Of a stretch of DNA of 64,000 bases, positions 18,318 through 63,902 are shown in pieces; the first letter of the stretch is position 1; every line of letters starts with the position of its first letter. Position numbers and translations under genes: made by a program. The notes beneath the pieces are model-generated. The model was not told where the DNA came from. It saw only the letters and a list, made by a program, of their open reading frames with translations, and did not search any database. This stretch comes from a virus (lineage: Duplodnaviria; Caudoviricetes), in IMG/VR virus record IMGVR_UViG_2907128583_000005, positions 32,001 through 96,000 of that record. One strand, written 5' to 3'.

Positions 18318-18390
18318 TATGTTCCCTCCTTTCAAATTATGTTGAAAGTAGGCTTATAAATAGTTATCTACTCTCTGTAAAATACTACTT

Positions 18391-18912
18391 TTACTCACAC
18401 TTTCTAATTGTTCTTTTTTTCTTGATCTCTAATTTGTTCCATTCGATTAGCTTATTCTTGATTAGATACGTGAGTGCTACCGCAAAAGAGTCCGATTCGT
18501 CTTCATTTTCAAAAATGATGTTAGAATAAACTTTCTTTATGGTATCCTGTACATACTTTTTAGTGGCATCCCCTCGACAAATAGCCTCCTTGACGGTTTT
18601 TGGTGGATAATATATTTGTTCAGTTTGATAAAAAAGCTTGTTAATGATTCCATGGACTCTATATATGACCTGTGTACTTGTATTAAACCTACTGAATCCA
18701 CGTTCAATTGTTACTACTGTTGGAGGATATTGTTTTATAATCTCTAACATTCTATCTTCTATGTATTTAAGTTTTTGTCCATGAGTAGCAGATTTCTTGA
18801 AATGTGAGGTCGAGATACTTGTAACTAAAATAGGTTTCATTGTATCGAGTTCAAAAATAGTTAATCCAGTACATTCCATACTTAAGTCAAATCCATACAA
18901 GTATTTACTCAT
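18391..18912 (-). CDS. RuvC-like Holliday junction resolvase
   Basis: YGFDLSMECTG, VTIERGF, YPPKTVK, DESDSFAVA. Confidence 0.85.
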   Translation of the reverse strand: MSKYLYGFDLSMECTGLTIFELDTMKPILVTSISTSHFKKSATHGQKLKYIEDRMLEIIKQYPPTVVTIERGFSRFNTSTQVIYRVHGIINKLFYQTEQIYYPPKTVKEAICRGDATKKYVQDTIKKVYSNIIFENEDESDSFAVALTYLIKNKLIEWNKLEIKKKRTIRKCE

Positions 18913-19124
18913 AGTAAACTCTCCATCATCTTCAGTCGATCATCCAAATAATTTGTTTCTAGTTTTACTAGTTCCTCATACTTATCTTCCTTTATAAATC
19001 CATATTTATTGTACATCTCAAGTCTTTTTAGTGTATGTATTTTCAATTCTTTAACAAGCTCAATATTATGACCTACTAAATTCAAATTACCATTCCTCTC
19101 CTGCAAGAATTCTTTTTGCTCCAT
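18909..19124 (-). CDS. Phage hypothetical protein
   Basis: Small ORF coupled to neighbours. Confidence 0.5.
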   Translation of the reverse strand: MEQKEFLQERNGNLNLVGHNIELVKELKIHTLKRLEMYNKYGFIKEDKYEELVKLETNYLDDRLKMMESLL

Positions 19125-19314
19125 TCGCTTTCTTTAAGCAGTCATAGTCATCGTGGACACTCAGACTGTCGAACAAGATCAATATTTCCTCTCCAACTAA
19201 AATATCTTCATTACACCCTGCACAAGTTAAAAACTTATTCACCTCCTCATTTTGTGCATCAGGAAATCTAAACTCATGATATGGACTTTCAAATCTGTCG
19301 AGGTTATTTGCCAT
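19087..19314 (-). CDS. Small putative zinc-binding protein
   Basis: CAGC..H...C. Confidence 0.55.
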   Translation of the reverse strand: MANNLDRFESPYHEFRFPDAQNEEVNKFLTCAGCNEDILVGEEILILFDSLSVHDDYDCLKKANGAKRILAGEEW

Positions 19315-19424
19315 TAATTTATTCTTCTAGAAGCTTGTTTAGGACGATTGATACAATCTCTTTGTACTCTTTCTCGCTAAGCTTCCGATTTAATATTTCT
19401 TCAATTTTTTGCTTATTCATTTTA

Positions 19425-22628: not shown

Positions 22629-22797
22629 GATTACCGACCTCCTAATCCTATAAAATATTGATTTTAATAAAATCTGATATGAATATTTTGCACCTCTCAC
22701 CCCCTTAAATATTTATGAGGCTCATAAAGAACAATCGATGGATTTCTAGCTAAGTTAATTAAGTATGATTGTTCTTTATGGACAAATACAATTTAAT

Positions 22798-23772
22798 TTA
22801 TGGCAATATGATAGATTCTCTTTTATTCATTTCAACATTTGAATTTGATATATCTCGTGGCAAAATATCCATTAAATTTTGCTTAGAAATCTTCACACGT
22901 CTACTCATTATTCTGACAGCTTGGTGTCGAATCGCTTTTTCAATCACATTACGAACATAACGTGCATTGCTAAAATTACTTCTTGAGTCTTTCTCAATCT
23001 GAATTATTTCTCTAAGCTTTATAAGTGCATCAGAGGTAATGTTGTAGTCTTTTTCATATGCCATCTTTACTGCAATTAACATTAGCTCATCTGTTGTGTA
23101 ATCCTGAAAATCTATTTGTATTGGAAACCGAGATGGGAGACCTGTATTTGTTCTAAGAAACATCCCCATCTCATCTGGATATCCAGCAAGGATAATTATT
23201 AAATCATCGCTTCTATCCTCCATGACTTTTACAAGACAATCTATAGCTTCCTTTCCAAAATCTTTATCTCCTCCTCTAGCCAAACTGTAGGCTTCATCAA
23301 TAAAAAGAATACCTCCCATAGCCTTCTTAACAAGATCTCGTGTTTTTTGTGCGGTGTGACCAATGTATTCTCCAACTAAATCTGCTCGCTCTACTTCAAT
23401 TAGATGACCTTTACTAAGGATACCCATTCTGTTTAGCAACTTAGAAGCTATTCTTGCCACTGTCGTCTTCCCTGTACCGGGATTTCCTTTGAATATCATA
23501 TGGTATACCTGATTACTACTTTTAAGACCTTCTTCACTTCTAAGTTTTTGTACCTGTATTAATGCATAAATTTCGTACACAAGTTCTTTTACCTTTTCAA
23601 GTCCAATCATATCGTCTAAATCCTTAAATATGTCTGCTGCGGATTCGTAATGATTACTGGTTAATGGAATTTCTTCGTTTTGTTCAGATATTGCTTCATA
23701 AGCCTCCTGACTTTTAAAAACAACATTGATCCTTGATTCATTAACAGTAATCCTTCTAGAGCTTTCATCCAC
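22798..23772 (-). CDS. spoVK: Phage-encoded full-length SpoVK-like AAA+ ATPase
   Basis: HMIFKGNPGTGKTT, ERADLVGEYIGHTAQKT, LFIDEAYSL, GLPSRFP, FSNARYVRNVIEKAIRHQAVR identical to the host fragment. Confidence 0.92.
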   Translation of the reverse strand: MDESSRRITVNESRINVVFKSQEAYEAISEQNEEIPLTSNHYESAADIFKDLDDMIGLEKVKELVYEIYALIQVQKLRSEEGLKSSNQVYHMIFKGNPGTGKTTVARIASKLLNRMGILSKGHLIEVERADLVGEYIGHTAQKTRDLVKKAMGGILFIDEAYSLARGGDKDFGKEAIDCLVKVMEDRSDDLIIILAGYPDEMGMFLRTNTGLPSRFPIQIDFQDYTTDELMLIAVKMAYEKDYNITSDALIKLREIIQIEKDSRSNFSNARYVRNVIEKAIRHQAVRIMSRRVKISKQNLMDILPRDISNSNVEMNKRESIILP

Positions 23773-23794
23773 AGTAATCACCTCTCGTTGTGAC

Positions 23795-23824
23795 AGTATA
23801 TGCCTAATATGGTCTACAACATGC
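23795..23824 (-). promoter_or_regulatory. Candidate sporulation-sigma (SigG/SigE/SigF-type) promoter for phage spoVK
   Basis: GCATG-N17-CATATACT, 22 nt upstream of the GTG start. Confidence 0.5.
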
Positions 23825-23952
23825 AGGTATGTTTGTTCAAATATTCAACGCCATTAACATAACACTTATTCACTAAGAACTTCAGATATTCAACTTTTAA
23901 TTTTACTTTAATCCTTGTAGCTTCCCTTATTGTATGTATTGTAGGCCGAAGC

Positions 23953-24237
23953 CTACTCAAAGGAATTTAATAACTCATCAAACCTATCCTCATAATCCTG
24001 CTCATTAATTATTTGTTCAATTTTTTCTACTGTAAACTCTTTTTCTTCTTCTAATACTATATGTTTTTCCGATGTCTGAATTATGTTATTGGGAGTTGGA
24101 TAAACTCCAAAGAAAAATAATCTTAATGCCTCCCTTACAATATCACTTTTATCCTTGTGTGGTGGCAAACTATTCCAAGCCTGAATGAGATCATCATCTT
24201 TTTTCGGTCTAAGTCTTGCTTTGGCAGCTATTTCCAT
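23953..24237 (-). CDS. ParR-like ribbon-helix-helix adaptor
   Basis: KSDIVREALRLFF, acidic tail, overlaps the parM stop. Confidence 0.65.
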   Translation of the reverse strand: MEIAAKARLRPKKDDDLIQAWNSLPPHKDKSDIVREALRLFFFGVYPTPNNIIQTSEKHIVLEEEKEFTVEKIEQIINEQDYEDRFDELLNSFE

Positions 24238-25172: not shown

Positions 25173-25192
25173 AGTGGTATAACCTCCTTAGA

Positions 25193-25255
25193 ATTTGTGT
25201 GAACACATGTACCAGTCTGTCACAATCCATCACACTTGTGTCCATTTGTGTCCTC
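25193..25255. repeat. parC-like short repeats upstream of parM
   Basis: TTGTGTCC twice at a 10-bp period, plus TTTGTGT and related CACA half-repeats. Confidence 0.5.
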
Positions 25256-25461
25256 AATTTCTAATTTGATTATACCACATCTATCTCTTTTATTCTACAG
25301 TTTCATTATATTTAATTTTTTATACGTTTCAAAAACACAGCAAATGATAAAATCAGGATTTTACGTAGAAATCACTATCAATAAATCCTTATAAACATTG
25401 GGTATTTTATGTATCAATGTAGTTCTACATTATTCTTGTTCATTTTGCATTCTTGATGTCG

Positions 25462-26137: not shown

Positions 26138-27884
26138 TTAACATAGGTTATTTTTAATATATAACCACCCTTGTGATTCCATCAGTTTTTGGTGATTAAA
26201 GCCTTCTTCTTCTGTTTCATATGTATAAACAACTTCTTCGCGTTCAATCTTCATCGTCGCATCTCCTTTTCTCATTTTACTGGTAACCTTGTATTTATTA
26301 ATTAATGTTAGATGCTCTGTCACAAACCAAAACAATACTCTATCTTTCAATTTCTCATCCAATTTATCGATAGTACTCCAAACTCTATCCATGTAAACAT
26401 TAGGGAATCCGTCCTTATCTTTGTAGGCACACATTTTAAACTCATCTATAAAATTGTTTCTCAATTGTGTTTCATTCATAAAATTCTCCATGTCAAAAGA
26501 CATATACCCATCTCCTCATAAAATGCATCTTTTACTTACATAGTGCTTCAATTGACTTAATTAATTCTTGCTTATCAATACCAACCACTCTGTCTCCCAA
26601 CCTTATCTCCACTTCCGAAGAATCACTGTAAGATTCAAAATCAATTGTTTCTGATGAATATGAGTTATAGCTGTCAGTTAGTAAATCGAGTACTATTTTC
26701 ATATGCTACCTCTTTCATAATTTTAGTTATATTTAAATTTTTGTTTAACCGTTTCAGTTGCTCAATTACATCACACATATACCAATAAAGGTCACTAATC
26801 TCTTCAGATTTGTATCCATCAAGAAAAATCCAGTAACTATCATGTTCGTTTGATATCTCGACTGCTCTAGTATGATATACCTTCTTCCACTCGTGCCTAC
26901 CTTTCAGACCACCGTTTTGTTCTATGTATCTCAATAGTTCTGCATTAAACATTTCGTATAACTCAATGCCTTGCTGAATAGTTTCAAACCCCATGTAACC
27001 CTCAACTGAAATGTTGTACTGATCTTTATCTGAATACCATACCTTACCTTTCCAGACTTCAAAGTCTCCATCATGCATATTGATCAATGTTTTGGGATTC
27101 ATTTTCTTCATTGTTTCATCGAATTTTCCCTGATTATATGCATTGTTATAATAATCAAGCCTAATCTGTTCCATCTCTTTGGAATAAAATATCTCTTCAA
27201 GTTTTTTCTTGTTCATGTAGGCACTCCTTATCTAAGATTATGGATATACATTAAAAAGACTCCATCAATCAGTCCCAGCACAAACCAGCCAAGTTGATTC
27301 CAAGTAAAGTTTCTCTTTAGGTTTTTATAAATTCCTACGTGTACCATTTGTGCCATCATAAACAAAAATCCAATCCAAAATGTAATCACAGTCCCATCTC
27401 CAATCGTCCATTACAATCTCTCAAAATTCCAATAGACCCTATTCGTCAGTTGATCAACAGCTACATTTATTTGATGTCTATTTGTCGTAAAAAGACCATA
27501 CGAATTGCATACAACTGTGAATTTCACTAAAGGAATTTTTGTGTAATTGGCACCTCTGTCTATTAACACTTCGGTTACTGTAGCTCCTACTTGAATTCTT
27601 TTGTACTTAGGAAAGGCTTGTTTAATTAGTTTTTTTGTATATTTGTATAAACCTTTATCCACTAAATTAACTGTCTCCTTTATAAAATATGAGTTTTACT
27701 TCAATTTTCGATAGTCTAAATAATCTAAAACAACACCTAATAAACAAACTCCAGAGAATCCAAACCAAAACCAAGGGGTTGTAGTTTGAGGATAAATCAG
27801 ACCATAAATTGCACCTACTAGACCGCAAGCAGTCATTATAGTTAATAAGTTAATAGTGAAGGTTAAAAGTTGTTTTCTGTTCAA
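26138..27884 (-). CDS. Run of small phage hypothetical ORFs (26138-26503, 26532-26702, 26674-27216, 27411-27662, 27696-27884)
   Basis: Co-oriented short ORFs with RBS; the last has two hydrophobic segments. Confidence 0.55.
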
Positions 27885-29268: not shown

Positions 29269-29491
29269 ATGTATTACCCCTTCCTAATGTAGTCAATGTA
29301 TACCCATACAGATTTATATTTGCCACACTTGGTGCAAATCATATGCCGTTTCATTCCAGATTTTTTTACAATTCCGTAAGTAATCATTTCTTCATGTTTG
29401 CGGTCGTTTGTTTCCCATTGGTGATCACAGAACAATTTAAGAATAAGAATTCCCTCCTCTCTATAAAACAAGTGTTTTACAACAATATGTA

Positions 29492-31390: not shown

Positions 31391-31422
31391 GTTTCACTCT
31401 TCCTTTCAATAAAACAGGTAAT

Positions 31423-33951
31423 TTACAGGATTCTAAATTCTTTTAATGTCTTCTTTAGTTGTTCGTGTGACAATCTTGAAGCCATATTCCTTGCTCTCTT
31501 CCAAGTTTCTTCGTCAATATCATTATCTCTTAATTCTCGAACCAAAATATTCATTAGTCGTTTAGCATTTTGATTAATCAATTTATACTCATCTCCACTA
31601 ATTGGCGCTGCATTGCCAAACTTATCAATGCCATTGCATACACTACGATCATACATTTCAGTTTCATAGTAATATTTCATCCATTTGATAAAGGATTTCC
31701 GATACTTCTGGTCTTTAAAATATTCCTTATATAAATTATCCATCCTAATTACATCCCTTTCTGAATAAAACTAGACTTTTACAGACTTTTTTTATTAATC
31801 AAAAGTTCAATTTCTTTTAATTGCTCAATATTCAATGTTCCAAGTTTGTTGCTGATGCTGCTAACAAGCCCTTGTTTTTCTTTTGTTTGATTGATATTAT
31901 TCCAATAATCGTTTGGGTCAACATATGCCTTATAACAACCCAATATTCCGCTGTTATTAGTTAATGTTTTCTTATCTAATCTGATAGGATGCTTATCGCC
32001 TTCTTGGGTTACATACACGCTTGATGAATTTATTTTTTGAACGGTAAATTCTTTGAGATTTTCGTCTTTGAATAAAAAGCCTCTTATATTCACATATAAG
32101 GTTTGCCCCACCTCAATTTTTTTCACTAGAATTCTCCTTTTCTCTAAAGTCTATTATACTGATATTTCCACCCGCTTCATTATAGTCAACAAGCGTTCGT
32201 TTAATGCTGTCCAACATGACATTACAATTCTCTTTGCTTGGGTTTTGCGAGATGTTGTAGAGCATATTGGACAATCCACGCATAGTAACTTCTAAGTAAC
32301 TCATTGCTTTGCAAACTCCTTTCTACTTTTAATCAAGTTTTCGACCTCTACCTTATATTCTTCAGGACTTGAATGCTCATAATCCGCTATGTCTTCAACA
32401 TCTTTAAATAGTTGATAGGTTAAGTCATAGAATAACTCTCTATTAGGTAAAGACTCCCGATATGCATTGATCCGATTTTTATATTTATAAATTTGTTCAA
32501 TGCCACAATCTTTCCACATTTTCAACAGTAATAATTCTAATTCGTTCATAACATTGTACCCCCCTCATCTTAATAAAATTAGATTTTTATCTCGTTCTTA
32601 ATTTCTATTTTAATTTGTTCAAACAATTCTATTGCTTTTTGTTGAATTCCCTTAGAGAACATTGACAGACTGATATATTCTGTTTCTGAACACTCCAATG
32701 TCTTTCCAAATAATTTCCCCATCGAGATATCAACTTTAATTTTTGCACTTCCATTAAGTTCATCAGCTTTCCCAAAATAATTTTCACTACTAAGTGAAAC
32801 ACTAATCAGTTCACAATCCACACTACTTTTCATTGAATCATCTCCTTAATTGTTTGCGTAGTTCACTTCAAATGATCTGCAATTCTATTTTTGGGCAATC
32901 TCATTATAATGGCTGCGCCAAAATCATTTAATGCGTCTTCACCCTTAATTGCATCTTCAGGAATCCAAACTTCAAGTTTGACTCGGTAATAGCCCTTGTT
33001 CTTTCCTTTCTTAGATGGCGCGTAAGTGCTAATCATCCCTGAAGGTGGAGCCAAGACCATTAAACTGTCATTATATTTTTCTAACACTTGATCTACATAC
33101 ATCCCAACCATTTCTTTATTAGCTCCAAAAATCACTTTACTCATTATATTTATCCTCCTATTAGTATTATTAATACAAAGTTATATGAATATATCATCTT
33201 GATAAAAGACGGCTTTTACGAAGAGTTACACAAGCAACTTTCCTTCTAATCGATCATATGCGTTTTTTACATTCTCGCTAACTTCTATGTATTTATTATA
33301 ATCTTTAGTTAAATCAATTACTTTGCCGTTTTGTACCGTAAACTGAAGATGATAGTACTGAATATATTTTCTGCCTTCATATTCAGCAAATTTCCTTCCC
33401 AATGTAACTGCCCTTTTAATTTTGTATTCAACATCAGTGATTGAATCACACTTTAAATAACTAATTGGACAACACACTTTAAACTGCTCAATAACTCTGT
33501 TACTTACTTTCATTCAACTGTTCTCCTATGTATTATTTAATTTAATATGATTGATTCATTGTTATATGCTTCAGCAAACTCCTTATAGAATTTATTATTA
33601 TTATCAAATTCATCCTGACCATCTTTAATGCCTAGTTCATAGCACATTTTCCTATGTCCTTCTCTGATTTCCTCAAATGCTTTACTCCAAAATATCTTTT
33701 GTATAATGTTTTGAATCAAATTTAATTCACCTTCCTTCCCGTGAGATTAACGAACTTGCCAAACTTCTCAATCTTATATGGTCTTGGAGAGCTGGACTGA
33801 TATTCCAATAATTCATTATACGTTTTTCGTTAGGCTTAAATTCTATACCTTTAAAATTTGTCTTTTCTCCAATAATAAATGTTGTTGATCTAGGATCACC
33901 ATCAACCCAACAGATATCCAGCAGTGTTTGTGCTTCATGACTTAATTGCAT
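31423..33951 (-). CDS. Run of about nine small phage hypothetical ORFs
   Basis: 31423-31743, 31779-32126, 32113-32304, 32301-32549, 32579-32833, 32863-33144, 33226-33513, 33537-33719, 33727-33951. Confidence 0.55.
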
Positions 33952-34551: not shown

Positions 34552-34599
34552 TCATATTATCATATTTATTTATTTTTGTATATAGGTATTTCATTATTT

Positions 34600-35933: not shown

Positions 35934-36713
35934 CTAGTTAAACCGTTTTGCACCAAGCTTAATTTGTCGTTTTACTTCTTCTTCAATCTTAGGTTCTGGA
36001 GCTTCCCAGCCTTCAGGCTTAATTACCTTACCTACTTCATTGTAGTGTGGCTTACCATCAGGGAAAATTTTAGACATGTTTGCTTGATGTACTAAATCAA
36101 AAATTTTATCTGGAATAACAGAAGTCTCAACAAATCCACCTTCAGCAAAATACTTGATGTCAGTAAGAGCATCAATTTGTCCAATTAGACGATCTTCAGG
36201 AAAAGGCTTAGTAAGTTGTTTATCGTAGGTTTCCTCGGCGTTCAGGACTAATTCAGCAAAAAACTTATCGAATCTCTCTTTGTTACCAGCAGTAGCATAC
36301 AACAACTCAATCACTTCCTCAAGAATAAAAGAGGCACGATTGATTGCCAATTTATCTGACAGGATAGTTGGCACATCTGGAGCAGGGCAATTAAATGCCT
36401 TTTGAAATTCACGTACCTTGAAGAAATCACTAGCATGGCTATCATTTTGAATCTTTACATTCTTAAGATGAAGGTTTCCGTTTAAATCAATCTTAATAAA
36501 TCCATCATTAGTAGAAGTCTGCTTATCCTTATATTTTCTGAGCATTTGCGTTTCGAACTTATTTGTACGTCTTTTATCTTTAATGAAGTATGTAACGACA
36601 GTAAGACCATTTAGTTGCCCCTTAACAACACCTTTTACCTTAAGCGGCTTGATGTAAACTTTTTCACCGATATTATAAAATGGTTGTTTTACTTGCTTGT
36701 TATTTTTTTTCAT
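35934..36713 (-). CDS. MazG-like nucleotide pyrophosphohydrolase with an N-terminal extension
   Basis: VREFQKAF, EEVIEL, DALTDIKYF, VHQANMSK, GKVIKPEGW. Confidence 0.75.
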   Translation of the reverse strand: MKKNNKQVKQPFYNIGEKVYIKPLKVKGVVKGQLNGLTVVTYFIKDKRRTNKFETQMLRKYKDKQTSTNDGFIKIDLNGNLHLKNVKIQNDSHASDFFKVREFQKAFNCPAPDVPTILSDKLAINRASFILEEVIELLYATAGNKERFDKFFAELVLNAEETYDKQLTKPFPEDRLIGQIDALTDIKYFAEGGFVETSVIPDKIFDLVHQANMSKIFPDGKPHYNEVGKVIKPEGWEAPEPKIEEEVKRQIKLGAKRFN

Positions 36714-53626: not shown

Positions 53627-56287
53627 TTATTTTGATACGGATATTACATGTGGGATTCCTCGTTGCTTGTCCTTTATAAATACTTCATTCGTATCCAAGT
53701 TAACAATCTGATAATCTCTATACATATCCACGTACCACCACAACACATAAGAAACGTGTTCTAATGAACTCCATATAGTCGCTTTATTGGTAGTCTCAAC
53801 GTCTTCATATGGATGATCAGTACCCGAATCTACATGTAAGAGATACTTATCTGTCGCCACATCTTGAATTACAAACCTGTAGTGTATATCTGTCATTGCT
53901 GTTTCTCCTCTCTGAACGTAGATAATCCTTAATAACATTTATGAATCTGAGTCCTAAAATAAAGTCTCCGTGATTAATATTGGTTTCAGTGGTTGTCCAT
54001 TCTGTTTCATATCCATGCGCAATCAATATAGACTGAATTTCATTTATAAATTCTCCTTGCTCCCCTTGGTTGTACCGATAAAAATTCATTTTATTCCACC
54101 TTATAAAATAGTAGTTTTACTCATCATTTTATTGTTTTTCCATTCGCTCTGCTGCTTCATCAATAAGTGCTTCAAATGATTGTTTAGTCGTTTTAGCCAT
54201 CATCATCCATCCTTCAATTTCCCAAGGCGACATCTCAGTATTGATATCTCGAAACTTGCTTGACAGACCCTGAATCTCTTGTTGAAGATAATAAAATCGT
54301 TTATAAAACCCTACATCTGTTATAATAGGATGTTTTCGTGTATCTGGCTCATGATAAACTGAATTTACATCAGTCCAGAAAATCTCACCGTTCTCTACTT
54401 CTACATACAAATTATCTCCAACCACTTCTTTTACCAATGCTTGCAAACCAATATTAAAATCATTATCACTTCTTGCGATTTCAACATATGTATCTTTTAA
54501 ATAAGAATAATCCTTTGTTTTAATCTTCATTTTTAACTGTCTCCTATAATAGTTTTTATTTACTAACTTTTACTCAGCATAATTATGACGATCTTTAAAC
54601 ATTCTTTTAAATCTCATTAAGGTTACTTCATCTAATCCAAACTCTGTTGCGTCCGCAATTAAAACTAATTCAAAATGTTTGTCTGTGTAATAGTCACTCA
54701 ATGAGAGAAAATGCATTTCATTTACATCGTTATATGTAAAAATTTCGTCCCTCTTTGCATCATAACAAAAGAGATATTCTTTTCCTGCTTCGAAACAATG
54801 ATCCGCTTCTTCGTTTGGTTTTCTTCCATATATGATCATGGACTCTCTACATCTTACTCTAGCTAACATCAATTTCCTTTCGTTACGTCTATTCCCCAAC
54901 ACTATCTCTCCTTTTTATAAAATCTTGTTTTTACTTTTTAATATTTGAATCTACACCGAGTTTTAAATTTATAACTACTCATACTAACTCCAACCAAGCG
55001 TTCAATTTCATCTTTGTACTTCTTTCTTCTAGTCAAGAAATATAATATCTTATTTCTTCGAATTTTTTTTTGTATCTCTTTACTACTCAACCAGAATTCG
55101 TTGAGATCTTTCATTGGTCAATCACTTTCCATTCTCCTGTAGAAATCATCTCTTTAACTTGTTCAATAGAATATTGAAGCTGCCAATACGAGATAGGAGT
55201 TGTAACAATATAGAAGTTACCGCATTTGTCAGCCTTACATTTGACTTCTTTGGTAGTAAAATAAAATGAATCTTTTAGTTCGATTTCGTACTTGGTATTA
55301 CTTTTACTTGTTAACTCATTAAGTTCTTTAAGCAGTGAATACATCGCTTTATCCTTCAAAGAAATCAATTCATTAATATATTCATCAGTAAATTCGTTTC
55401 TTCTCATATCAATTTGTTGCTTTAGATAACTAATCCGTTTTTCTTTCTCTACTCGTTCTACGTGACTCTTCGTGTCTACCTTGGACACAATCCATCTTGT
55501 AGGCTTAACCCCTTGATTGGAATCCGTAATTCTTAGTACTCTACCTGTTTCATAGCCATTTTGAGTGTCACAAACAACTAAATCGTCTTTTTTCAAATCA
55601 ATGTCAGTGTAAAATGCGTATGGTGTTTGACTTCCGTTGTGTTTTACAATTGCAATTTTAGCCATATGTATTATTCTCCTTTTATTTGCTGTATGCCTGA
55701 GACCAATTCTTATATTCATCTGCTCTAATAGCAAAATAATCGCCATCATGTTGAAAACATTTATAAGCAATAAGTGTATTAACCGAGTTTTTAATATTCA
55801 CTCTATCCCCGATAGATACGGGAATCCATTGATACGGCTCATTAATTTCATCAAGCCAAAACAAGAAATTTTCCCATTCTAGCTTTGATACAATTTGAAA
55901 GTTGTCTGCTTTAAACAAATCACCACCTCCTTGTAAAAGTATATTTTTATCAACTCAGAGAGTTGTTTATTCTGCCAATTCTAGATTAAAATTCACCTGA
56001 TGATGAAGTACCCATCCAGTTGCATTTTGGTTAACGTTGTGACAATAATATCTATCTTCTGGAATATCATTATCACTTGCGGGAATAGTATCTAAGATCC
56101 ATAACATATCTTCATTTTCCCAATTGTAGCAATCTAATTGGTCGTCTTTAACCCAGCAGATTCCGTCCAGAATTAGTTCGTTTTTTTCGTTGTATCTAAT
56201 GTTTGGTTCATAGATACTAACTCTATTCTTTTCAATTTCAGCAAACATTTTTACGTTCCCCCTTTCTTCATGAAACTCCTCTTTCAC
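53627..56287 (-). CDS. Run of small phage hypothetical ORFs
   Basis: 53627-, 53847-54089, 54129-54530, 54570-54902, 55111-, 55682-55918, 55967-. Confidence 0.55.
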
Positions 56288-56336
56288 TAATTCTATATTT
56301 CTATTATAATTAGTGTAAAAAGTTAGGAAGTTTACA

Positions 56337-56645
56337 ATGAATAACAGTGTTTCAAAGGTTAAAATTGATGACTATTATACAAATAACGGAACAAGCTTTT
56401 GCGACCTATTAATATATTTAGATGACAATTCAATAATAAAAGCAAAAGCAAAAGAGATTGAAGGAACTTGGATCTTTTATTCTGCCGACTTTACTACTCG
56501 TCCTTGCCCCAACTGTAAGCAAATAGCTTGGTGTCATTGTGCTAAGAAACTTCTTTCCTTCCCAGACAAACCACTTAACAAATTTATAAAACAAGAACTT
56601 ATGGTATATCGCTTAGGAGATCCGTTTAATTACTGGAGTAAATAA
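56337..56645 (+). CDS. Counter-oriented small Cys-rich protein
   Basis: CPNC..WCHC; its stop codon forms the left arm of the palindrome at 56643. Confidence 0.6.
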   Translation: MNNSVSKVKIDDYYTNNGTSFCDLLIYLDDNSIIKAKAKEIEGTWIFYSADFTTRPCPNCKQIAWCHCAKKLLSFPDKPLNKFIKQELMVYRLGDPFNYWSK

Positions 56646-56659
56646 AATTCAAATTTTAT

Positions 56660-57350
56660 TTATTTCTCAATTTTATACGAAATGATCTCAGCACTAACGA
56701 TAGAATCTTCAACGTCTCCAATATCTATTAGTACTCTTTTTTTACCATTAAACAATACTACTTCCTGAATATATCCAGCTTCATCTACGCTGTTAATATG
56801 CTTCTTGTTGAGTTCATGTTCGACGGGAATAAAATCTCCATCTGCAACAGAACTGATAGCCGTCTTAAGGATTGAACTCCCCATTGTGTTTCCCCCAACT
56901 TCATATATTATTGCTCCTTTATAATCTTCAAACATTAGGGTAACTTTCACTTGATGGATATTAGAATATCCAGGGTTGTAAAATTTCATTTGTTTGTCTC
57001 CTTTTCTTTATATAAAATCCAACTTTTATATGGTCACATTAGCATGTTTGAGAGGTTGTTAGCTGTGTATGAAATTCCGATCAACCTCTACTATGTATCA
57101 ATCATCATTTTAATTTATAGAATACTTTTCTAGAGCACATCATGAAAGAACTCGATTCAAAACCTGCATCGTTTACTATAAATAACTCAGCTTCGCCTAT
57201 ACTACTAATACTAGATTCCCACCTACCTAAAACATATAATTCCCCCTCTGTTAAATCTAATCCCCCACATAAATTCTTAGTGATAAAAACATGAGTTGCT
57301 ACGCTTAAATCCTCTGTCGGCTCTAAGCTGGCAAGTTGATGACTAGACAT
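56660..57350 (-). CDS. Two phage hypothetical ORFs (56660-56989, 57105-57350)
   Basis: RBS present for both. Confidence 0.55.
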
Positions 57351-57379
57351 GTGACCATCCCTCTCTGTTTCATATTTTC

Positions 57380-57408
57380 ATTATATTTATTTGTTTAATA
57401 TAAGTCAA
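57380..57408 (-). promoter_or_regulatory. Near-consensus sigma-A promoter, similar to the one at 44372
   Basis: TTGACT-N17-TATAAT. Confidence 0.75.
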
Positions 57409-57459
57409 CAGTTTTATTTCATTATTTATAATTGTTTAACTGACAGTGTTTCAGCTTAT

Positions 57460-57485
57460 AAAAAAGGGAGGTTCTTACGCCTCCA
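57460..57485 (-). terminator. Intrinsic terminator after the primase gene
   Basis: ggagg / cctcc stem with an A run on the plus strand. Confidence 0.6.
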
Positions 57486-57508
57486 TTTAGATAAAAACTA
57501 TATTTTAC

Positions 57509-58582
57509 TCAGACTGATACTTTGAATTTACACTCCTCATATAGAGTATTGAATACATCTTCTCCTCTGTCACATGGACTGTCTTTGTCCTTAAACAAGT
57601 TTCTATTGTCATATAAAGCATACACATTTCTAGTTTTCCCGAACTTAGCTGCTTGTTTTCTTACTGCTTCTACTGGCTTGTCTTTATCTAACGCTATAAC
57701 TATCTCTACATCATGGCTTAATTCCTTTATCATCTCAACCTGCCATTCACTTAGATCGTCACCACTAATAGCAACACAGTTTCGATGACCGTATTGACTA
57801 ATTAACCAGCAAGTTTTTTCACCTTCAAATATCAATATCTCTTTTCTTTCTAATATGTAATACAAGGCTCGATGCCAATTGTAAAGTTCAATCATCTTGT
57901 TGAAATTGATAAGATATAAGAACTTATAAATATTCTTCTCTTCGTAGTCACCAAATATGGTTCTTCCTTTTATAGATACAATATCCCCAAAGCGATTGTG
58001 TATGGGGAAGATTATACGTTGGCTTCTTAAGTCAAAGCCTATTTGAAATTCTCGCTGTATTTCGCATGACACCCCCTCATCTAAATAAGTTTGATGAGGG
58101 TACATGACAAATTGATTTAATATTTCATCATCATAGGTGTCATTCTCAAGGTTACTTAACTCTCTTTTTTTCTTACGTTTCCGTCTAACATCCTTGAGCC
58201 AATCGAGTTGAACTAAACTAGGTGGAGGCATATAGCTGCTGTCTAAAAATTCTTTGTAGCCTAATTGTTCACATATCCATCTTTTAGCTTTAGGCAATCC
58301 TCTTTGTCTGTCATCTTCTGATATTTGATCAAAAACTATATAAGATACTAATCCATAAATATCTATATCTGACTCTCCAAGCGTCCTAATTCTGCTTGAT
58401 AGGCTTTCATTTAAATAAACTTGAACTGATCTTTTATTTGGCGATTCAAATTTGTGGGGGAGTTGCGCCTCGTAGCGATTATTCTTTTTTTCTACATATT
58501 CGCAACCCATTGCTTCTAAAAGTTCTCCAACCCTTGATTCCTCTATGATTCTTTCCTTTATTAACTTCAGATCATTGCTCAT
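57509..58582 (-). CDS. Phage DNA primase (TOPRIM)
   Basis: RIIFPIHN..KGR, IFEGEK, IALDKD, KDSPCD. Confidence 0.85.
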   Translation of the reverse strand: MSNDLKLIKERIIEESRVGELLEAMGCEYVEKKNNRYEAQLPHKFESPNKRSVQVYLNESLSSRIRTLGESDIDIYGLVSYIVFDQISEDDRQRGLPKAKRWICEQLGYKEFLDSSYMPPPSLVQLDWLKDVRRKRKKKRELSNLENDTYDDEILNQFVMYPHQTYLDEGVSCEIQREFQIGFDLRSQRIIFPIHNRFGDIVSIKGRTIFGDYEEKNIYKFLYLINFNKMIELYNWHRALYYILERKEILIFEGEKTCWLISQYGHRNCVAISGDDLSEWQVEMIKELSHDVEIVIALDKDKPVEAVRKQAAKFGKTRNVYALYDNRNLFKDKDSPCDRGEDVFNTLYEECKFKVSV

Positions 58583-58601
58583 GCTGCTCCTCCAAAGGAG
58601 T

Positions 58602-60092
58602 TTAACGTCCATTATTAGGTACGACTACTAATGCTACCTCTTTCCAAATATTAAAATCATAATTCACTTCAAACACTATTTGCTCATCCTCAGATCCTTC
58701 ACGGTTTTTAGGTAGGAACAGAATGAGATATTTTTTCCCCGGGTCTAATTTATACGGTTTCTTGTGCCATCCACCAAAACCACTATCCTTCTCCCAGTTA
58801 TATGGATCTAATTCGTTTTTTCCACCGGGATATTCGTCTGCAAAAATCAATCTGCCAGCCATTACAACGGCTGCTACTTCTACAATCTCTGGTGATTTAC
58901 CAATACAATCTAAATCTATGTATCTAAACTCTTTACCAATTTTAAGTTGAACTGTTGCTATTGTGGCGCAATTATTAGACTCTTCTTTGATACAGTCATA
59001 CAGTTCTTGAGCTGAGTTGGAGAAAGCAAGCCATCGCTCTACGTTCTGTGATAAATCAGGTTTAAATGTATCAAAATAAATATGCTTATAACCTAATGGT
59101 CTATAAAGTTCTATTCTATTAATGACGTCTTCAATTCGATACTTCTTGAGCTGCACGAATTTAATAAAGTCTGGACGGTGTGTCTGCAACCATTCGGCAG
59201 CTTCTTTCAGGGTTTGTTTGATTTCTGCACTAAATCCACCCCTGTTAACCGTATCTCGTGCCACTGGCTTTTTCAAAATTCTTGCGGCAACGGTCACTAG
59301 AAGTCTTGTCCTCCATCTTTTTATCCCTTCTTCATTTGCAAAGATAATTCCTTTTTCTCCGCTCTCAAGTAACCCCAAAACGCCTTTCTCAGTTAAAATG
59401 CTTGATTTCCCCACACCTGAAGGAAGAACGAGATACATTAAGTTTCCAAGCTTTTGCCCGTTGATCTTCTTATTTAGCCTAGGAGACTCGAATAGCGGTA
59501 TTCCTGCATCTTCTCCTGCCTCCAATTGATCAATGGTCTCATCTAGATTATCTATAAGATTGTATTCAATTACTTCTCCACTATTTACATGAGAAAAGGA
59601 TTCTTTGTGTTTAAATTGAAAGAAGCTTTGCATCTGTTTAAGTGACATATTAGCCAATTTTGAAACCAGATTTGTGTTACTAATATCCAATAACCCTTGC
59701 TTTTGAAGATTACGAAGTGACTCATATTTTTGTACTTCGCTAAAATGATATTCATCATTTCCTTTGTCTCCGTCACACTCTGATACGACTTCATCAATTG
59801 TTGAGAAGCCGCCATAATCATTATAATAATCAAAGTATGACTTCTTGCCATTTTCAGAAGGCTTAGATGTAATAAATGAGTAAGTGGTTACATCATCAAA
59901 TAATCGAATACCACTTTCATACATCTCTTTTCCAATGTAAAAGTAGAACCACCATATACCCTCTGTAAAAGTATCTTTACTAATTTTATGGGTTTTATAT
60001 TTACCGTATAGACTTGGTGTGTTCCATAAATAACCGATAAATATAGACTCATGAACTTTCGATGGATCTACAAATTCTTTGATATATTCTAT
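58602..60092 (-). CDS. DnaB-like replicative helicase
   Basis: PSGVGKS Walker A, IFANEE, YFDTFK, TVQL, KNREG. Confidence 0.85.
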   Translation of the reverse strand: MEYIKEFVDPSKVHESIFIGYLWNTPSLYGKYKTHKISKDTFTEGIWWFYFYIGKEMYESGIRLFDDVTTYSFITSKPSENGKKSYFDYYNDYGGFSTIDEVVSECDGDKGNDEYHFSEVQKYESLRNLQKQGLLDISNTNLVSKLANMSLKQMQSFFQFKHKESFSHVNSGEVIEYNLIDNLDETIDQLEAGEDAGIPLFESPRLNKKINGQKLGNLMYLVLPSGVGKSSILTEKGVLGLLESGEKGIIFANEEGIKRWRTRLLVTVAARILKKPVARDTVNRGGFSAEIKQTLKEAAEWLQTHRPDFIKFVQLKKYRIEDVINRIELYRPLGYKHIYFDTFKPDLSQNVERWLAFSNSAQELYDCIKEESNNCATIATVQLKIGKEFRYIDLDCIGKSPEIVEVAAVVMAGRLIFADEYPGGKNELDPYNWEKDSGFGGWHKKPYKLDPGKKYLILFLPKNREGSEDEQIVFEVNYDFNIWKEVALVVVPNNGR

Positions 60093-60111
60093 TGTTACCA
60101 CTCCTAACGAA

Positions 60112-60693
60112 TTACACAAAATCAGAAATGTCTAAATCATCTCGTTTATTAATATATATATTTTTAGTTGTAAGAGATTGATCTCTTTTAGACTCTTGTT
60201 TTTCAACTCGTTTTACTGCTTCTAATTGTTTCTTTTTATTCTGTCTAATTCTCCAAGCATCATTTAAATGGCTCATCATAGTAGAGATTGTATAATTGAC
60301 CTGATTAACGTCGTTCCAATCTCCGATCTTTGTAGACATTGCATATAAGTTGTTTTTCTCAGATAGCCTATAAGCTTCAAGCATTAGAGCATAGTCAGGC
60401 CCTGTTCTCCACTTTGGAATTTTCTTGCCTTTTTTATACTCAAAGCCAGCACGAAGATGCTTTAATCTTGTTATATTTGCTATTGATAGTGTAACTAAAT
60501 CGTGAAACTTTATTATGTATTGATATAACTCATCCCATTGCTCATTTTCAATTCTAGTTGCCTCTTGTTCTTTCTTAAACCTCTCATAACAGTATTCTTT
60601 ATGGTAATACCTTTTGTGTTCTAAAATCATATCTTCTCTAAGTCCATATTGACTGCAAATTGGACACTTAACTGGTCTTGCCAGTTTAATCAC
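60112..60693 (-). CDS. Zinc-finger protein in the replication operon
   Basis: CPIC..YYHKEYC; precedes the helicase. Confidence 0.6.
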   Translation of the reverse strand: MIKLARPVKCPICSQYGLREDMILEHKRYYHKEYCYERFKKEQEATRIENEQWDELYQYIIKFHDLVTLSIANITRLKHLRAGFEYKKGKKIPKWRTGPDYALMLEAYRLSEKNNLYAMSTKIGDWNDVNQVNYTISTMMSHLNDAWRIRQNKKKQLEAVKRVEKQESKRDQSLTTKNIYINKRDDLDISDFV

Positions 60694-60698
60694 CCCCT

Positions 60699-61535
60699 TC
60701 AGAATTTAAAACATTCAAACTCAGGCAATCTCAACAAATTGTTTTTCGTAAACCCTCTATGTTTAACTACGCACTTAATAACTTCTTTAATGTAGACTGT
60801 ACTTTCTGTTTCCTTTACTTTAAGCTGCTGGAATACCTTGTACCCTGCTTTTCTCTCATTTGAGCCTACCGCTAAAGTTAAGACACCTGCTATTCGTTCG
60901 CCATCAGATAGTAGCCAACCAAATTCATCTTTTTTATAACCAGCAATGTAGTACTCACCAACATCATAGGCAATTACTTTAAGCCACTTATCTGATCTTT
61001 TGTCAATCTCATATTTCGAATTTATTTCTTTCTGAACGGTTCCTTCAAGCTTTTGTTGCTTAGTAAGATTAAAGTACTCAACTCCGTGTCCCAAGATGAA
61101 TTTTGTCTTTTTGTAATAATCATTATCCTTAAATGCTGACTCCAGTATCTCTTTACGCTCAATTAACGGCAAGTGGGTAACACTTTTTCCATTATAATTA
61201 ATGATATCGAATGCACAAAAAGTTACTTTGTGTTTACTTTTTCTTGATTTAAACCTTTCCATAACTGATTCAAAATTTGGTTTTCCTTCTGAGTCAGTAA
61301 CAATTAGTTCCCCATCTAGAGTTGTTCCATTTTCAATTGGAATATTATCAATAAGCTCAGGGAACTTGCCAGTTACTTCGTTCTTATGTCGTGTATATAG
61401 CCTTACTCCATCTCGCGTATCTACAAGAAGTCTTATCCCATCAAGCTTTAACTCTGTTAAATGCAAATTACTGTTAAATGGCTCATTGTTATCTGCCTTA
61501 TGCAGAAGCATTGGAGATACAAACATATTCATCAC
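60699..61535 (-). CDS. ATP-dependent DNA ligase (minimal type)
   Basis: ELKLDGIR, LDGEL, AFDI, EGTVQK, WLKV. Confidence 0.9.
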   Translation of the reverse strand: MMNMFVSPMLLHKADNNEPFNSNLHLTELKLDGIRLLVDTRDGVRLYTRHKNEVTGKFPELIDNIPIENGTTLDGELIVTDSEGKPNFESVMERFKSRKSKHKVTFCAFDIINYNGKSVTHLPLIERKEILESAFKDNDYYKKTKFILGHGVEYFNLTKQQKLEGTVQKEINSKYEIDKRSDKWLKVIAYDVGEYYIAGYKKDEFGWLLSDGERIAGVLTLAVGSNERKAGYKVFQQLKVKETESTVYIKEVIKCVVKHRGFTKNNLLRLPEFECFKF

Positions 61536-61608
61536 CCATTTAACAGTATATCAAATGAGTATATGCTATTTCTGCGGTAAGTTATGTATATCGTTTAAAA
61601 TGAAGATT

Positions 61609-61782
61609 TTATTCAATCTCATGATACACTTGTAAAACATTTGCGTTGTCGATTAATTGATCGTGTTCATCCAATACCATAATGAATGAATCATCCATTG
61701 GAATATAGACACCCGTTTCATTGAGGTGCTTTACAATGATCTTCCTAACCTCTTCTAGACTTAGTGTATATCCGGCTGTCAT
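61609..61782 (-). CDS. 57-aa hypothetical ORF (not in the ORF track)
   Basis: MTAGYTLSLEEVRK..HEIE; stop lies in a palindrome arm. Confidence 0.55.
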   Translation of the reverse strand: MTAGYTLSLEEVRKIIVKHLNETGVYIPMDDSFIMVLDEHDQLIDNANVLQVYHEIE

Positions 61783-61994
61783 TCCATCTCCTCCTCGATT
61801 AACTCAAAGCGCTTGACACCATTGTTTGTATATCCAAAGAACATATCTACTGGTCTAGCCCAAATGTTATTATCTTTATCCTTGTAGATCACCAAACCAT
61901 CCATTGTTTCAGTGTGTGTAGCCATACTGACAATTGTGTAGTAATTTCCTTTATAATGCTTGTATCTAGCTCCCTTAGTTACTTCGTACACCAT
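61779..61994 (-). CDS. DUF1653 family protein
   Basis: YKHYKGNYY..ATHTET..VIYK..WARPVDMF. Confidence 0.85.
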   Translation of the reverse strand: MVYEVTKGARYKHYKGNYYTIVSMATHTETMDGLVIYKDKDNNIWARPVDMFFGYTNNGVKRFELIEEEME

Positions 61995-62033
61995 TTATTT
62001 TCCTCCACTATGTATTTTGGTAAAATTGAACTT

Positions 62034-62891
62034 TTACTCAAAAACCTCTTCGTCTGTACTATGTATGTATTGATCCAGCTCTTCTTCGTCGAATACTTTA
62101 TCTATCACTTCTGATACCCATTCTAATGATACTGTGAAATCACTATCTTGTTTTTTCTTATCTTTTATTGCTTCGATTACCGTTTTGAATAATGACAAGT
62201 CTACACCAGTGAGTTGTTCCTCTAGTACTGTCGGGTCGTTTAGATTGAGATCGCCACATTGTAGAATCATCTTCAGATATTGGCCTGCGTTGATTGACCA
62301 CCCTCTTTCAATGTACTTGCGAGAGCGTACAATAGAAGCTACTGGATATTTAGATCCTACATATTTTAAGTCTTTTGTTATAATGGACTCTAAAGCTTTC
62401 TGAGGTAAAACTAATTCATTCTTGTGTGGAATATAATAACAAGTACAATGAACAAAATCGTAGTTTTCGTGGACTTCTTCGGGATCTCCATAAAATCTAG
62501 TAATTAACTGCACATTATCAGATAGTGTAATGGCGTTTGTTGAAAGAAAAACTGGATTAAAACCTTCTTTGTATTTGGCTTTTGCTACTCCTCGACTTGG
62601 TACAAATACACTAACTCTGTCCTTAATTTTTTTAACTGTAGCTCCATATGTATCATTTGTACTTCGATTAAATTTGTTCACATAATATTCTGCTACTTGT
62701 ATACATGACTCTTGATCCATAAAGTAATAATCATAATCATTAGGGTCTTCTTCGAGTAATAGTGAAACAATAGCGCCTCCTGTAATAAATGATTTCTCAT
62801 TAACCAACTTAGCAATTTCTTCATTTTTAATTGACGCAATAAAGCTTCGATGAGCTTCTTGTAGTTTTCTTTTTATGCTTCTAATGTTCAT
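62034..62891 (-). CDS. Nucleotidyltransferase-superfamily phage protein
   Basis: ITGGAIVSLL..NDYDYYF (hGG..DxD), YDFVHC, RKYIERGW. Confidence 0.65.
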   Translation of the reverse strand: MNIRSIKRKLQEAHRSFIASIKNEEIAKLVNEKSFITGGAIVSLLLEEDPNDYDYYFMDQESCIQVAEYYVNKFNRSTNDTYGATVKKIKDRVSVFVPSRGVAKAKYKEGFNPVFLSTNAITLSDNVQLITRFYGDPEEVHENYDFVHCTCYYIPHKNELVLPQKALESIITKDLKYVGSKYPVASIVRSRKYIERGWSINAGQYLKMILQCGDLNLNDPTVLEEQLTGVDLSLFKTVIEAIKDKKKQDSDFTVSLEWVSEVIDKVFDEEELDQYIHSTDEEVFE

Positions 62892-62964
62892 TCAATCTCT
62901 CCTCTATATAATTAGTATTAATATTGATCCTTATCTCATTTTCGTTATTTTTGTATATTTAATA

Positions 62965-63234
62965 TTATTTAATTACTACTTCCATTTCCAAAGCCACAAC
63001 TAACTTCATCAAAAAATCAAAGCTTGGTACATATTTGTTTTCTTCCAGTTGAGTAATTTTAGTGACTTCCACTTTTGCAAGATCAGCCAGCTCGTCAATA
63101 TCTATGTTATTGTCTTTACATTTTTTTACGAGTGCATTTGTCAATTTTGCTTTCATTGCAATTTCTTTTTTCTCATTTTCGGACTTATAGTTTAATCTAC
63201 TTTTCAAATCTGTCCATGTTTTATATTGCTCCAT
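62965..63234 (-). CDS. XRE-family HTH protein
   Basis: ELADLAKV..ITQLEE..PSFDFLMKLVVAL. Confidence 0.75.
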   Translation of the reverse strand: MEQYKTWTDLKSRLNYKSENEKKEIAMKAKLTNALVKKCKDNNIDIDELADLAKVEVTKITQLEENKYVPSFDFLMKLVVALEMEVVIK

Positions 63235-63250
63235 ATTTATCTTTCCTCCT

Positions 63251-63902
63251 TTAAACTAGCAATGTTCCAAAGTTATCACTTACTCTGACTTCGTAAACTC
63301 CTTTAAGTCTCCAAACCTCTTCCTTATGTAGCTTAGTCTTTAAGTGTACAAAGCTAACTTTGATTTTTGGATAATATACTTCTCCATACTCCTTCAACAA
63401 TTCAGGTTGCTTAGTATATACGAAATACTCGTTCAACATATCACCTCCTTGTTTTAATGAAACTACATCATTTCTTTCTCGTATCCAATCTACATTTTAC
63501 GGTAATTTTGTATGTATTTTTTCAATATATAATTCTTCGCTTTGTTGCATTAATGAATCAATTTCATCATTAAGTCGCAATATTTCATTTTTATTATCAT
63601 CTTCTACCGCGACATGTAGTTCCTCGTATTTCCAACCTAATTGATGGTAAAGTTCCGACAGATTTTCATAGAGACTCAAAATATCACCTCCTTCTCGTAG
63701 TGGAATCAACCTTTTATCTTCTTCTTCCTCTTCTTATTCTCGTTCTTTGTATACTGTTATGTTTCTCTATCATCTTATCTTTTTTTCTTATTTCTTTTTT
63801 ATAATTATCAGAGATTTTACCAATATGCTTTTCAATTTTTTTCATTTCCTCGTAAACATCTTTAATATCTCTAGGAACAGAATTTACATAACCTGCGTAC
63901 AT
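63251..63902 (-). CDS. Three small phage hypothetical ORFs
   Basis: 63251-63439, 63497-63709, 63714-63902. Confidence 0.5.

Follow-up and report, generated by a model that had tools for sequence, protein, structure and literature searches.

Why should the early region of a prophage carry dozens of copies of one short interrupted palindrome, each with a central sequence of its own? The question is raised by a window of 64,000 nucleotides (the whole stretch analyzed here; positions 32,001 to 96,000 of the IMG/VR virus record IMGVR_UViG_2907128583_000005, Caudoviricetes), which corresponds to C1:4526495-4590494, minus strand, of a genome designated G000. The element, TAAAA-N6-TTTTA, is present in 26 exact copies in the range 18378-62036, and comparison with related prophages suggests that these are two-fold symmetric DNA joints in which the centre would act as a position-specific address for cassette exchange. 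We consider this reading probable, by a narrow measure. A partner-matching requirement in the centre is proposed because the centres are non-coding, specific to each site and apparently under selection, being kept even where the adjoining genes have been replaced.

The motif is expected 0.67 times in the window, and none of 100 dinucleotide shuffles reached 26 copies (maximum, 5); the original prediction, made from the letters of the window, had counted at least 24. A genome scan for enrichment had been suggested as a check on that prediction. It placed 62 of 85 exact copies in the ~170-kb prophage at C1:4.402-4.572 Mb (34% G+C) and 23 in the other ~5.79 Mb of the 5.96-Mb genome (45% G+C), a density ~90-fold higher inside the prophage than in the rest of the genome. 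Copies with one mismatch are also more frequent in the prophage (44 per 100 kb, vs 10 elsewhere); 14 of them lie in the prophage part of the window, and at least three (31410, 45066, and 49025) retain their own centre in a relative. As had been claimed, exact copies are absent from the host genes and prophage 1 (window positions 1-18377) and from the ligase-helicase-primase stretch (57508-61595). The nrd/thy block had been described as equally free of copies, which was incorrect, as an exact copy lies at 36676. All centres are unique within a genome (62/62 in the G000 prophage and 51/51 in that of its relative G064), an uninformative result in itself, as chance predicts only ~0.5 to 1 duplicate.

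Genes in the 18.3-64 kb part of the window lie on the minus strand. Pfam matches comprise a large serine recombinase at the prophage end (16336-18120) and, within the prophage part, PolIII-alpha-like, SpoVK-like AAA, RecJ-like, and primase-like proteins, ribonucleotide reductases, and an ATP-dependent ligase (60699-61535). This stretch represents an early region of the SPbeta type. A 15-kb part of the window had no megablast match in a phage collection, and distant blastn gave only 65-68% identity to SPbeta-family phages, where the sequences aligned at all. As the G000 prophage is only distantly related to known SPbeta phages, close relatives were sought among genomes of the genus, and the early region was matched in 10 of 92 other genomes.

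Where the sites lie relative to genes was determined from gene-strand ORFs of 40 aa or more. The ORF sets used for this purpose and for the flanking-ORF and junction analyses follow a crude longest-ORF rule, without a gene finder, and the junction counts carry that noise. On the gene strand, a typical site lies 3' of a stop codon and 5' of the next ribosome-binding site. A TAA stop falls in an arm at 9/26 sites (13 cases had been claimed), a stop codon falls in the centre at 3/26, exactly as predicted (32574, 49891, and 50473), and at a further 9/26 it lies 1 to 25 nt upstream. A Shine-Dalgarno (SD)-like word follows within 14 nt at 15/26 sites. Among the 11 sites without a near SD-like word, some lie upstream of strong sigmaA-like promoters (44440 and 57492), and in the SPbeta genome SPBc2 the sites at 76171 and 99498 each separate a terminator from a promoter (aimR and yorE). 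Exceptions to the claim that all copies are at gene boundaries are 36676, in the first codons of a gene, and 55262, inside a long ORF.

Such placement is what would be expected of an RNA element, namely, an intercistronic A-U hairpin serving as mRNA processing site, translational operator, or insulator before each ribosome-binding site. A stop codon directly precedes 21/26 sites, the SD-like words are close by, and the sites of the early cluster are all between genes and in the transcribed orientation. The form of the variation speaks against this explanation. The commonest arm variants alter the second base of an arm, left or right, and of 31 such single changes 24 are uncompensated and break pairing; a stable hairpin is thus not what is conserved. 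Compensated doubles at the second arm base number 11 (vs ~3.4 under independence), of which 5 are T/A with a high background. Promoters follow, or terminators precede, several of the sites, including the two SPBc2 sites above, and a loop differing from site to site would not be expected to stay conserved at each of them. The original prediction had listed the hairpin as an alternative; we consider it highly improbable. RNA contigs from libraries X3 and X4 cover all of window positions 43001-58000 at a word depth of 21 to 47, and contigs cannot show transcript ends or strand. Two raw-read RNA runs with the same species label (X21 and X24) contained no read on these positions, and their strains seem to be without the prophage.

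The consensus, RTAAAAK-N4-MTTTTAY, extends the two-fold symmetry beyond the arms. Position -1 is R and position +1 is Y in both G000 and G064, and centre positions 1 and 6 are G/T and A/C, respectively, in all four phages examined. These mirrored preferences are not accompanied by pairing covariation, and centre positions 1 and 6 would be able to pair in only 6/26 window sites. The pattern is that of two half-sites, as would be read on duplex DNA, in line with the earlier description of inverted arms around a 6-bp spacer. An initial explanation of the G...T flank asymmetry as G-U pairing was dropped, as -1 and +1 are independent R and Y preferences. Palindromic centres were observed in 1/157 cases vs ~4 expected, a difference that is not significant.

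A DNA-binding protein had been the other alternative of the original prediction. The same features would suit a dimeric phage DNA-binding protein for which the sites are operator-like (regulatory, roadblock, or architectural), with recombination as a passive by-product of short shared homology and phage annealing or recombination proteins, as proposed for the promoter early stem-loops (PeSLs) of T4-type phages. Two-fold symmetry, half-site preferences without pairing covariation, and a steady position just 5' of an SD or promoter are all consistent with this alternative. MrpR of the SPbeta family provides a precedent, as it has a recombinase fold and is described as purely a DNA binder in the available part of PMC10516654. 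The comparison with relatives makes the operator explanation unlikely in our judgment, though it remains one to be taken seriously.

In the relative G064, the same host site is occupied by a mosaic prophage collinear with that of G000. For 35 of the 62 exact sites of the G000 prophage, an identical centre is present in G064, with the order fully kept; with one arm mismatch allowed, 65 collinear same-centre sites were found over the whole prophage. Among the exact sites of the window, 24/26 have a collinear counterpart with an identical centre, and for 12 of these 24 both 60-nt flanks are at chance level (at most 26/60). The sites are listed below without strand; centres are given on the plus strand, and flank figures are identities over 60 nt on each side relative to the G064 counterpart on contig C10.

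18378-18393, exact site, centre TACTAC; TAA stop of ORF 18391-18912 in arm; same centre at C10:58143, flanks 24/60 and 29/60.
22651-22666, exact site, centre TATTGA; just 5' of the SD of a PolIII-alpha-like gene; C10:62448, flanks 19/60 and 22/60.
25348-25363, exact site, centre TCAGGA; C10:65035, flanks 20/60 and 42/60, homology stopping at the site.
26519-26534, exact site, centre TGCATC; TAA stop in arm, SD at +2; C10:67406 with same centre and one arm mismatch, flanks 17/60 and 52/60.
27683-27698, exact site, centre TATGAG; TAA stop in arm; C10:67852 (one arm mismatch), flanks 18/60 and 18/60.
29464-29479, exact site, centre CAAGTG; C10:68693, flanks 18/60 and 17/60; adjoining ORFs unrelated (149 vs 609 aa and 65 vs 256 aa).
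31410-31425, site with one arm mismatch, centre CAGGTA; collinear same centre at C10:70582, flanks 14/60 and 20/60.
31766-31781, exact site, centre CTAGAC; TAA stop in arm; C10:70836, flanks 20/60 and 17/60; also in the G016 chain; in G069, centre kept and arms changed.
32574-32589, exact site, centre TTAGAT; stop codon within centre; C10:71987, flanks 16/60 and 58/60, a sharp break at the site.
33203-33218, exact site, centre GACGGC; precedes an AT-rich, promoter-like stretch; C10:73224, flanks 32/60 and 48/60.
36676-36691, exact site, centre TGGTTG; lies among the first codons of a PRA-PH-family gene of the nrd/thy block, an exception to intergenic placement; C10:76651 (16/16), flanks 51/60 and 27/60.
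43087-43102, exact site, centre GAACTG; C10:82163, flanks 21/60 and 22/60.
44440-44455, exact site, centre GGTACA; TAA stop in arm; precedes a strong promoter-like site (44400 to 44372, minus strand); C10:82916; also in the G069 chain.
45066-45081, site with one arm mismatch, centre TTTGAC; collinear same centre in G064, G057, G069, G009, and G066.
46180-46195, exact site, centre TGCGGC; adjoins a bidirectional terminator-like hairpin; G064 counterpart with one arm and one centre mismatch, one of the two window sites without an identical centre.
47726-47741, exact site, centre TACGCC; TAA stop in arm, SD at +1; C10:86995, flanks 20/60 and 18/60; also in G016.
48342-48357, exact site, centre TCTCAC; C10:87449, flanks 19/60 and 21/60; also in G069 and G009.
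49891-49906, exact site, centre GCATTA; stop codon in centre; C10:90352, flanks 20/60 and 15/60.
50473-50488, exact site, centre TCACCG; stop codon in centre; C10:91097, both flanks homologous (51/60 and 53/60); homologous place in G009 and G016 without a site.
54104-54119, exact site, centre TAGTAG; SD at +4; C10:93914, flanks 26/60 and 52/60, break at the site.
54918-54933, exact site, centre TCTTGT; SD at +5; C10:94367 (one arm mismatch), flanks 21/60 and 21/60.
55262-55277, exact site, centre TGAATC; inside ORF 55111-55770; C10:94545 (one arm mismatch).
55934-55949, exact site, centre GTATAT; one border of the slot described below; same centre in G064, G057, G016, and G009.
56643-56658, exact site, centre TTCAAA; C10:95899, flanks 20/60 and 10/60; also in G057.
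57013-57028, exact site, centre TCCAAC; specific to G000; an extra 109-aa ORF (56660-56989) lies between this site and 56643.
57492-57507, exact site, centre ACTATA; terminator-like hairpin and strong promoter-like site come next on the gene strand; centre also present in G064, G057, G069, G009, and G066.
61596-61611, exact site, centre TGAAGA; TAA stop in arm; C10:100444 (one arm mismatch, centre 6/6); homologous junction without a site in five more distant relatives.
62021-62036, exact site, centre TTGAAC; TAA stop in arm; C10:101125 (one arm mismatch), flanks 11/60 and 29/60.

Conservation is confined to the motif. At sites with a non-homologous flank, per-base identity between G000 and G064 is 0.86 to 1.00 within the 16-mer and 0.49 at -1 and 0.53 at +1, the chance level once the R/Y preference is taken into account. 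In the gaps between BLAST high-scoring segment pairs (HSPs), exact matches 16 nt or longer number 30, and 27 of them are the motif. Of the 64 intervals between collinear same-centre sites, 25 have 0 to 2% HSP coverage and differ in length, and the flanking ORFs often have no BLASTP match to their G064 counterpart and are of another size (e.g., 149 vs 609 aa). The two proteins flanking site 57492 are only 30% and 44% identical to their counterparts.

As a check for bias, sites were also picked by flank homology alone and projected across the motif, which yielded 17 sites in G064. The centre was intact (6/6) in 15 of the 17, and mismatches amounted to 3/102 centre and 4/170 arm positions, with flanks ~82% identical. 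The binomial probability of at least 15/17 intact centres is 1.2e-6 at 82% identity per base and 0.003 at 90%. Each centre is thus conserved as well as the arms, and it therefore appears to matter. This does not agree with the Tn916-style tolerance of heterologous overlaps that the original prediction had invoked. Chains of collinear same-centre sites were found in six relatives (65, 23, 28, 7, 12, and 8 members; 0 to 3 in reversed-sequence controls). Three sites in G069 have a 6/6 centre despite changes in both arms, and in G057 and G009 the places matching window sites 55934 and 57492 have TGAAA as one arm and unchanged centres. TGAAA may be an arm form peculiar to a lineage, following the specificity of the protein that reads the site. 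Similar second-base arm variants are seen in G069.

As each site keeps its own centre, a binding protein or an RNA hairpin would explain the arms and not the centres. The operator alternative gives no reason for site-specific centres that are conserved like the arms between flanks of ~82% identity and that stay 6/6 where the arms have changed, and tuning of affinity by the centre would allow many equivalent centres. Conserved centres would also be expected if a phage endonuclease cut within the centre, with the overhang as the address and repair or the phage ligase rejoining fragments of co-infecting genomes in order, as sticky-end rejoining would also demand a centre match. SfiI- and BstXI-type sites are interrupted palindromes that resemble TAAAA-N6-TTTTA with its free centre, and the ATP-dependent ligase is encoded in the window. 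However, no candidate nuclease was identified, and self-cutting at 60 or more places would be costly. We regard this cleavage explanation as improbable.

The address reading is illustrated by the slot 55934-57492. Both of its border centres are common to four genomes, in which the contents measure 1542, 1320, 2794, and 2105 bp and have little or no mutual homology. Within this slot, the centres of 56643 and 57013 differ at 2/6 positions. The single G064 site at 95899 has the centre of 56643 and an outer (high-coordinate) flank homologous to that of 57013. Segment 56643-57028 looks like the gain or loss of a single cassette plus one site.

A second, independent phage pair shows the same kind of border. 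SPBc2 and phi3T share long near-identical blocks, some of which start or stop within the motif. At SPBc2 86886, identity with phi3T spans the left arm and the centre and stops in the right arm; at 92394 and 92753, homology starts at the motif; and at 87599, it stops at the left arm, where phi3T has the centre of the next SPbeta site, 88400. Of the 17 centres common to both phages, 6 form islands (ungapped count; island 92394 has gapped downstream homology), 4 show one-sided breaks, and 7 are in continuous homology. Island sites devoid of flanking homology include SPBc2 116415, 117535, and 69424, paired with phi3T 107932, 108397, and 62423, respectively. Among junctions with at least one homologous side, breaks were found at 11/17 with the motif vs 13/69 without it (odds ratio, 7.9; Fisher P = 4e-4). 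The matches of phages Goe12 and SPbetaL2 to SPBc2 stop at SPBc2 116431, one base beyond the site at 116415-116430. The earlier proposal of cassette capture or shuffling by a phage system agrees with these data insofar as the sites lie at the borders of exchanged or inserted cassettes in both pairs; its description of the cassettes as promoterless does not hold in general, given the promoters that follow sites 44440 and 57492. In SPBc2 and G000, 2 centres are in common vs 1.5 expected, giving no sign of addresses shared between the phages of Bacillus and those of this genus.

Read as a mechanism, the sites would be crossover joints at which SPbeta-like phages swap, gain, or lose gene cassettes. 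The sites lie at module borders, 3' of a stop codon and 5' of the next SD or promoter, and an arm starting with TAA would also supply each cassette with a stop where it is joined. Recombination would be limited to like-numbered joints of two related genomes, so that gene order would be kept. The reader is proposed to be a conservative site-specific recombinase that would cut at both edges of the centre and need centre identity. Tyrosine recombinases need a matching overlap region of 6 to 8 bp. We infer that recombination at the sites proceeds by a dedicated mechanism, with the centre as its overlap region, and which kind of protein would act. About half of our confidence in the address reading extends to a tyrosine recombinase as the reader.

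No tyrosine recombinase was found in the prophage-2 part of the window, as originally stated, and the only recombinase adjoining the site array is the large serine recombinase at 16336-18120. The suggestion to look in the rest of the prophage was productive. Two PF00589 matches (C1:4462235-4462732 and C1:4436592-4437110) lie outside the window, at least 64 kb from the window sites. The first belongs to a YopP-like tyrosine recombinase (C1:4461833-4462906) ~64 kb past the window end, which is 28% identical to SPbeta YopP and, by reading of its sequence, has an intact R, K, HxxR, H, Y set; the YomM-like recombinase of the prophage has HxxK. SPbeta integrates by a serine recombinase, and YopP is a conserved core gene without an assigned role, according to the available part of PMC10516654. 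Possibly, the YopP-like tyrosine recombinase reads the joints. The more specific proposal that the array is a natural set of ~60 heterospecific sites, at which a dedicated phage recombinase (YopP-like or YomM-like) would swap cassettes only between same-centre joints, is a real possibility that falls short of being probable.

The motif is shared by the phage family. With the backwards motif pattern in the same phage records as a control (in parentheses), 34 (2) copies were counted in SPBc2, 30 (2) in phi3T, 23 (3) in Tsamsa, 33 (1) in FADO, 30 (7) in Geobacillus E3, 17 (8) in a Staphylococcus SPbeta-like phage, and 7 (3) in Lactococcus 949. All seven of these records carry a YopP-like gene, and three Bacillus Spounavirinae (130-149 kb) without such a gene have 1 motif copy each.

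Several results weigh against the address reading. Because these phages are related, shared ancestry makes the co-occurrence of motif and YopP-like gene weak support, and the enrichment is weak in the Staphylococcus phage (17 vs 8) and Lactococcus 949 (7 vs 3). The arms of known tyrosine-recombinase core sites are 11 to 13 bp long, compared with 5 to 7 bp here. No recombination event at a site was seen directly. In the G000/G064 junction test, break/no-break counts were 22/8 with the motif vs 37/30 without it, which is not significant (P = 0.12), and 37/59 mosaic breaks in this pair are at junctions without the motif, as are 13/24 breaks in SPBc2/phi3T. Some homologous junctions have no site in more distant relatives (61596 in five relatives, and also 50473, 76247, and 115819). 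The centre of 88400 at another phi3T junction argues against strictly like-with-like exchange. The motif is at neither border of the phi3T to phi3Ts "s" replacement, which argues against exclusivity.

Laboratory hybrids also count on this side of the argument. Both right-arm junctions of the hybrid Hyb2 lie within parent-identical blocks (SPBc2 113663-115066 and 126532-128097 or wider). As these blocks are themselves bounded by sites, homologous and site-specific exchange are indistinguishable there. In the available part of a previous study (10.1101/2020.05.06.055103), 15/16 laboratory junctions are in homologous regions and one, near yosA, is non-homologous. The many mosaic borders without a motif fit the operator alternative, as do genes that could support passive recombination: this phage has RecJ-like and ligase genes, and SPbeta is annotated with a Sak4-like annealing protein. 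Overall, the sites are preferred and precisely used borders and not the sole ones. The mtbP methyltransferase block of SPBc2 (113664-115059) is identical in phi3T and has shared sites at both ends; it looks like a complete cassette.

The array was also compared with known systems. Engineered heterospecific lox and FRT sets for Cre and FLP have arms of 13 bp around a spacer of 8 bp and comprise two or three types of site. They likewise combine identical arms with differing short spacers, and same-spacer pairing would swap cassettes with order and orientation kept; identical arms with site-specific spacers are also what was found here. In contrast, the present array is natural, with ~60 or more site types, arms of 5 to 7 bp, and a 6-bp centre, and its spacer dependence is inferred from conservation alone. 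On this comparison, lox/FRT-type sets appear nearest in working principle, and pdif modules and PeSLs nearest in natural history.

The dif and pdif sites are 28 bp long, with two 11-bp Xer arms; pdif is like the chromosomal dif, and the enzyme is the host Xer pair. In the pdif modules of Acinetobacter plasmids (XerC/XerD), as described in the available part of PMC6449649, inverted arms around 6 bp flank accessory genes, and modules recur across replicons. The present sites share the 6-bp centre, whereas conservation ends one base beyond the 5-nt arms, with weak R/Y and K/M preferences, and they form an ordered array with unique conserved centres in a phage. PeSLs of T4-type phages resemble them as short intergenic motifs of variable regions that mark borders of indels and replacements and for which modular shuffling has been proposed; they are promoter-plus-terminator composites whose role in expression is proven, and any of their copies can recombine with one another by homology (PMC2839356, available part). 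In contrast, each 16-mer here has its own conserved centre and contains no promoter or terminator; where present, such elements are separate and downstream.

Integron cassettes are attC-bordered, and attC sites are imperfect palindromes of 57 to 141 bp that are read as folded single strands and have little sequence conservation. The likeness lies in small genes each bordered by a palindromic recombination-type site, in stop codons that can fall in the site, and in the apparent single-cassette insertion at 56643/57013. The integron-like label of the original prediction is nevertheless not appropriate, as no integrase platform (intI, attI, and Pc at the array head) adjoins the array and conservation is limited to 16 bp (18 bp with the R/Y flanks), with no long imperfect palindrome of the attC type.

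SPbeta has another repeated intergenic element, SPBRE, the operator of the repressor MrpR (YopR), which has a tyrosine-recombinase fold and acts at ~10 promoter regions (PMC10516654, available part). The SPBRE word was derived from seven SPBc2 promoter regions (yorE, aimR, yonT, yonP, yonX, yopV, and yopM) on the gene list in the same part of that source. The shared word of ~15 to 20 nt is unrelated to TAAAA-N6-TTTTA, which occupies 30 to 60 gene junctions. As the defining features of integrons, pdif modules, PeSLs, and SPBRE are lacking, the palindrome was assigned to none of them. Literature searches found no published description of it; the original 1999 SPbeta genome paper was outside their reach. 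An SPBRE-like AT-rich repeat is present at window positions 34566-34590 and 62945-62958 (plus-strand coordinates) and beyond the window, and G064 has several copies as well. These repeats are probably the operators of a YopR/MrpR-like repressor encoded at C1:4497751-4498695.

Neat mosaicism at gene borders in phages is usually credited to selection on random events. In the large, experimentally tractable family to which SPbeta and phi3T of Bacillus subtilis belong, unrelated genes are slotted into a conserved scaffold of palindromes with site-specific centres. If the centres are addresses, gene exchange would be programmed and ordered, which would explain the turnover of accessory genes, including counter-defence genes. 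The pan-genome would then be shuffled gene by gene, with order, stop codons, and expression signals intact, by a built-in, addressed form of recombinase-mediated cassette exchange. Such sites might also provide a natural multi-site toolkit for ordered DNA assembly.

Further observations concern individual genes of the window. At 41806-42792 and 40568-41569, an anaerobic ribonucleotide reductase gene seems to be split or interrupted; the match of ORF 41806-42792 to the profile is limited to positions 1 to 263 of 562. For the RecJ-like ORF 50730-52004, the match to the DHH profile sets in at position 43, and another ORF (52340-53251) is located just upstream. The SpoVK-like AAA gene (22798-23781) is inside the prophage, and the large serine recombinase gene (16336-18120) marks the prophage end.

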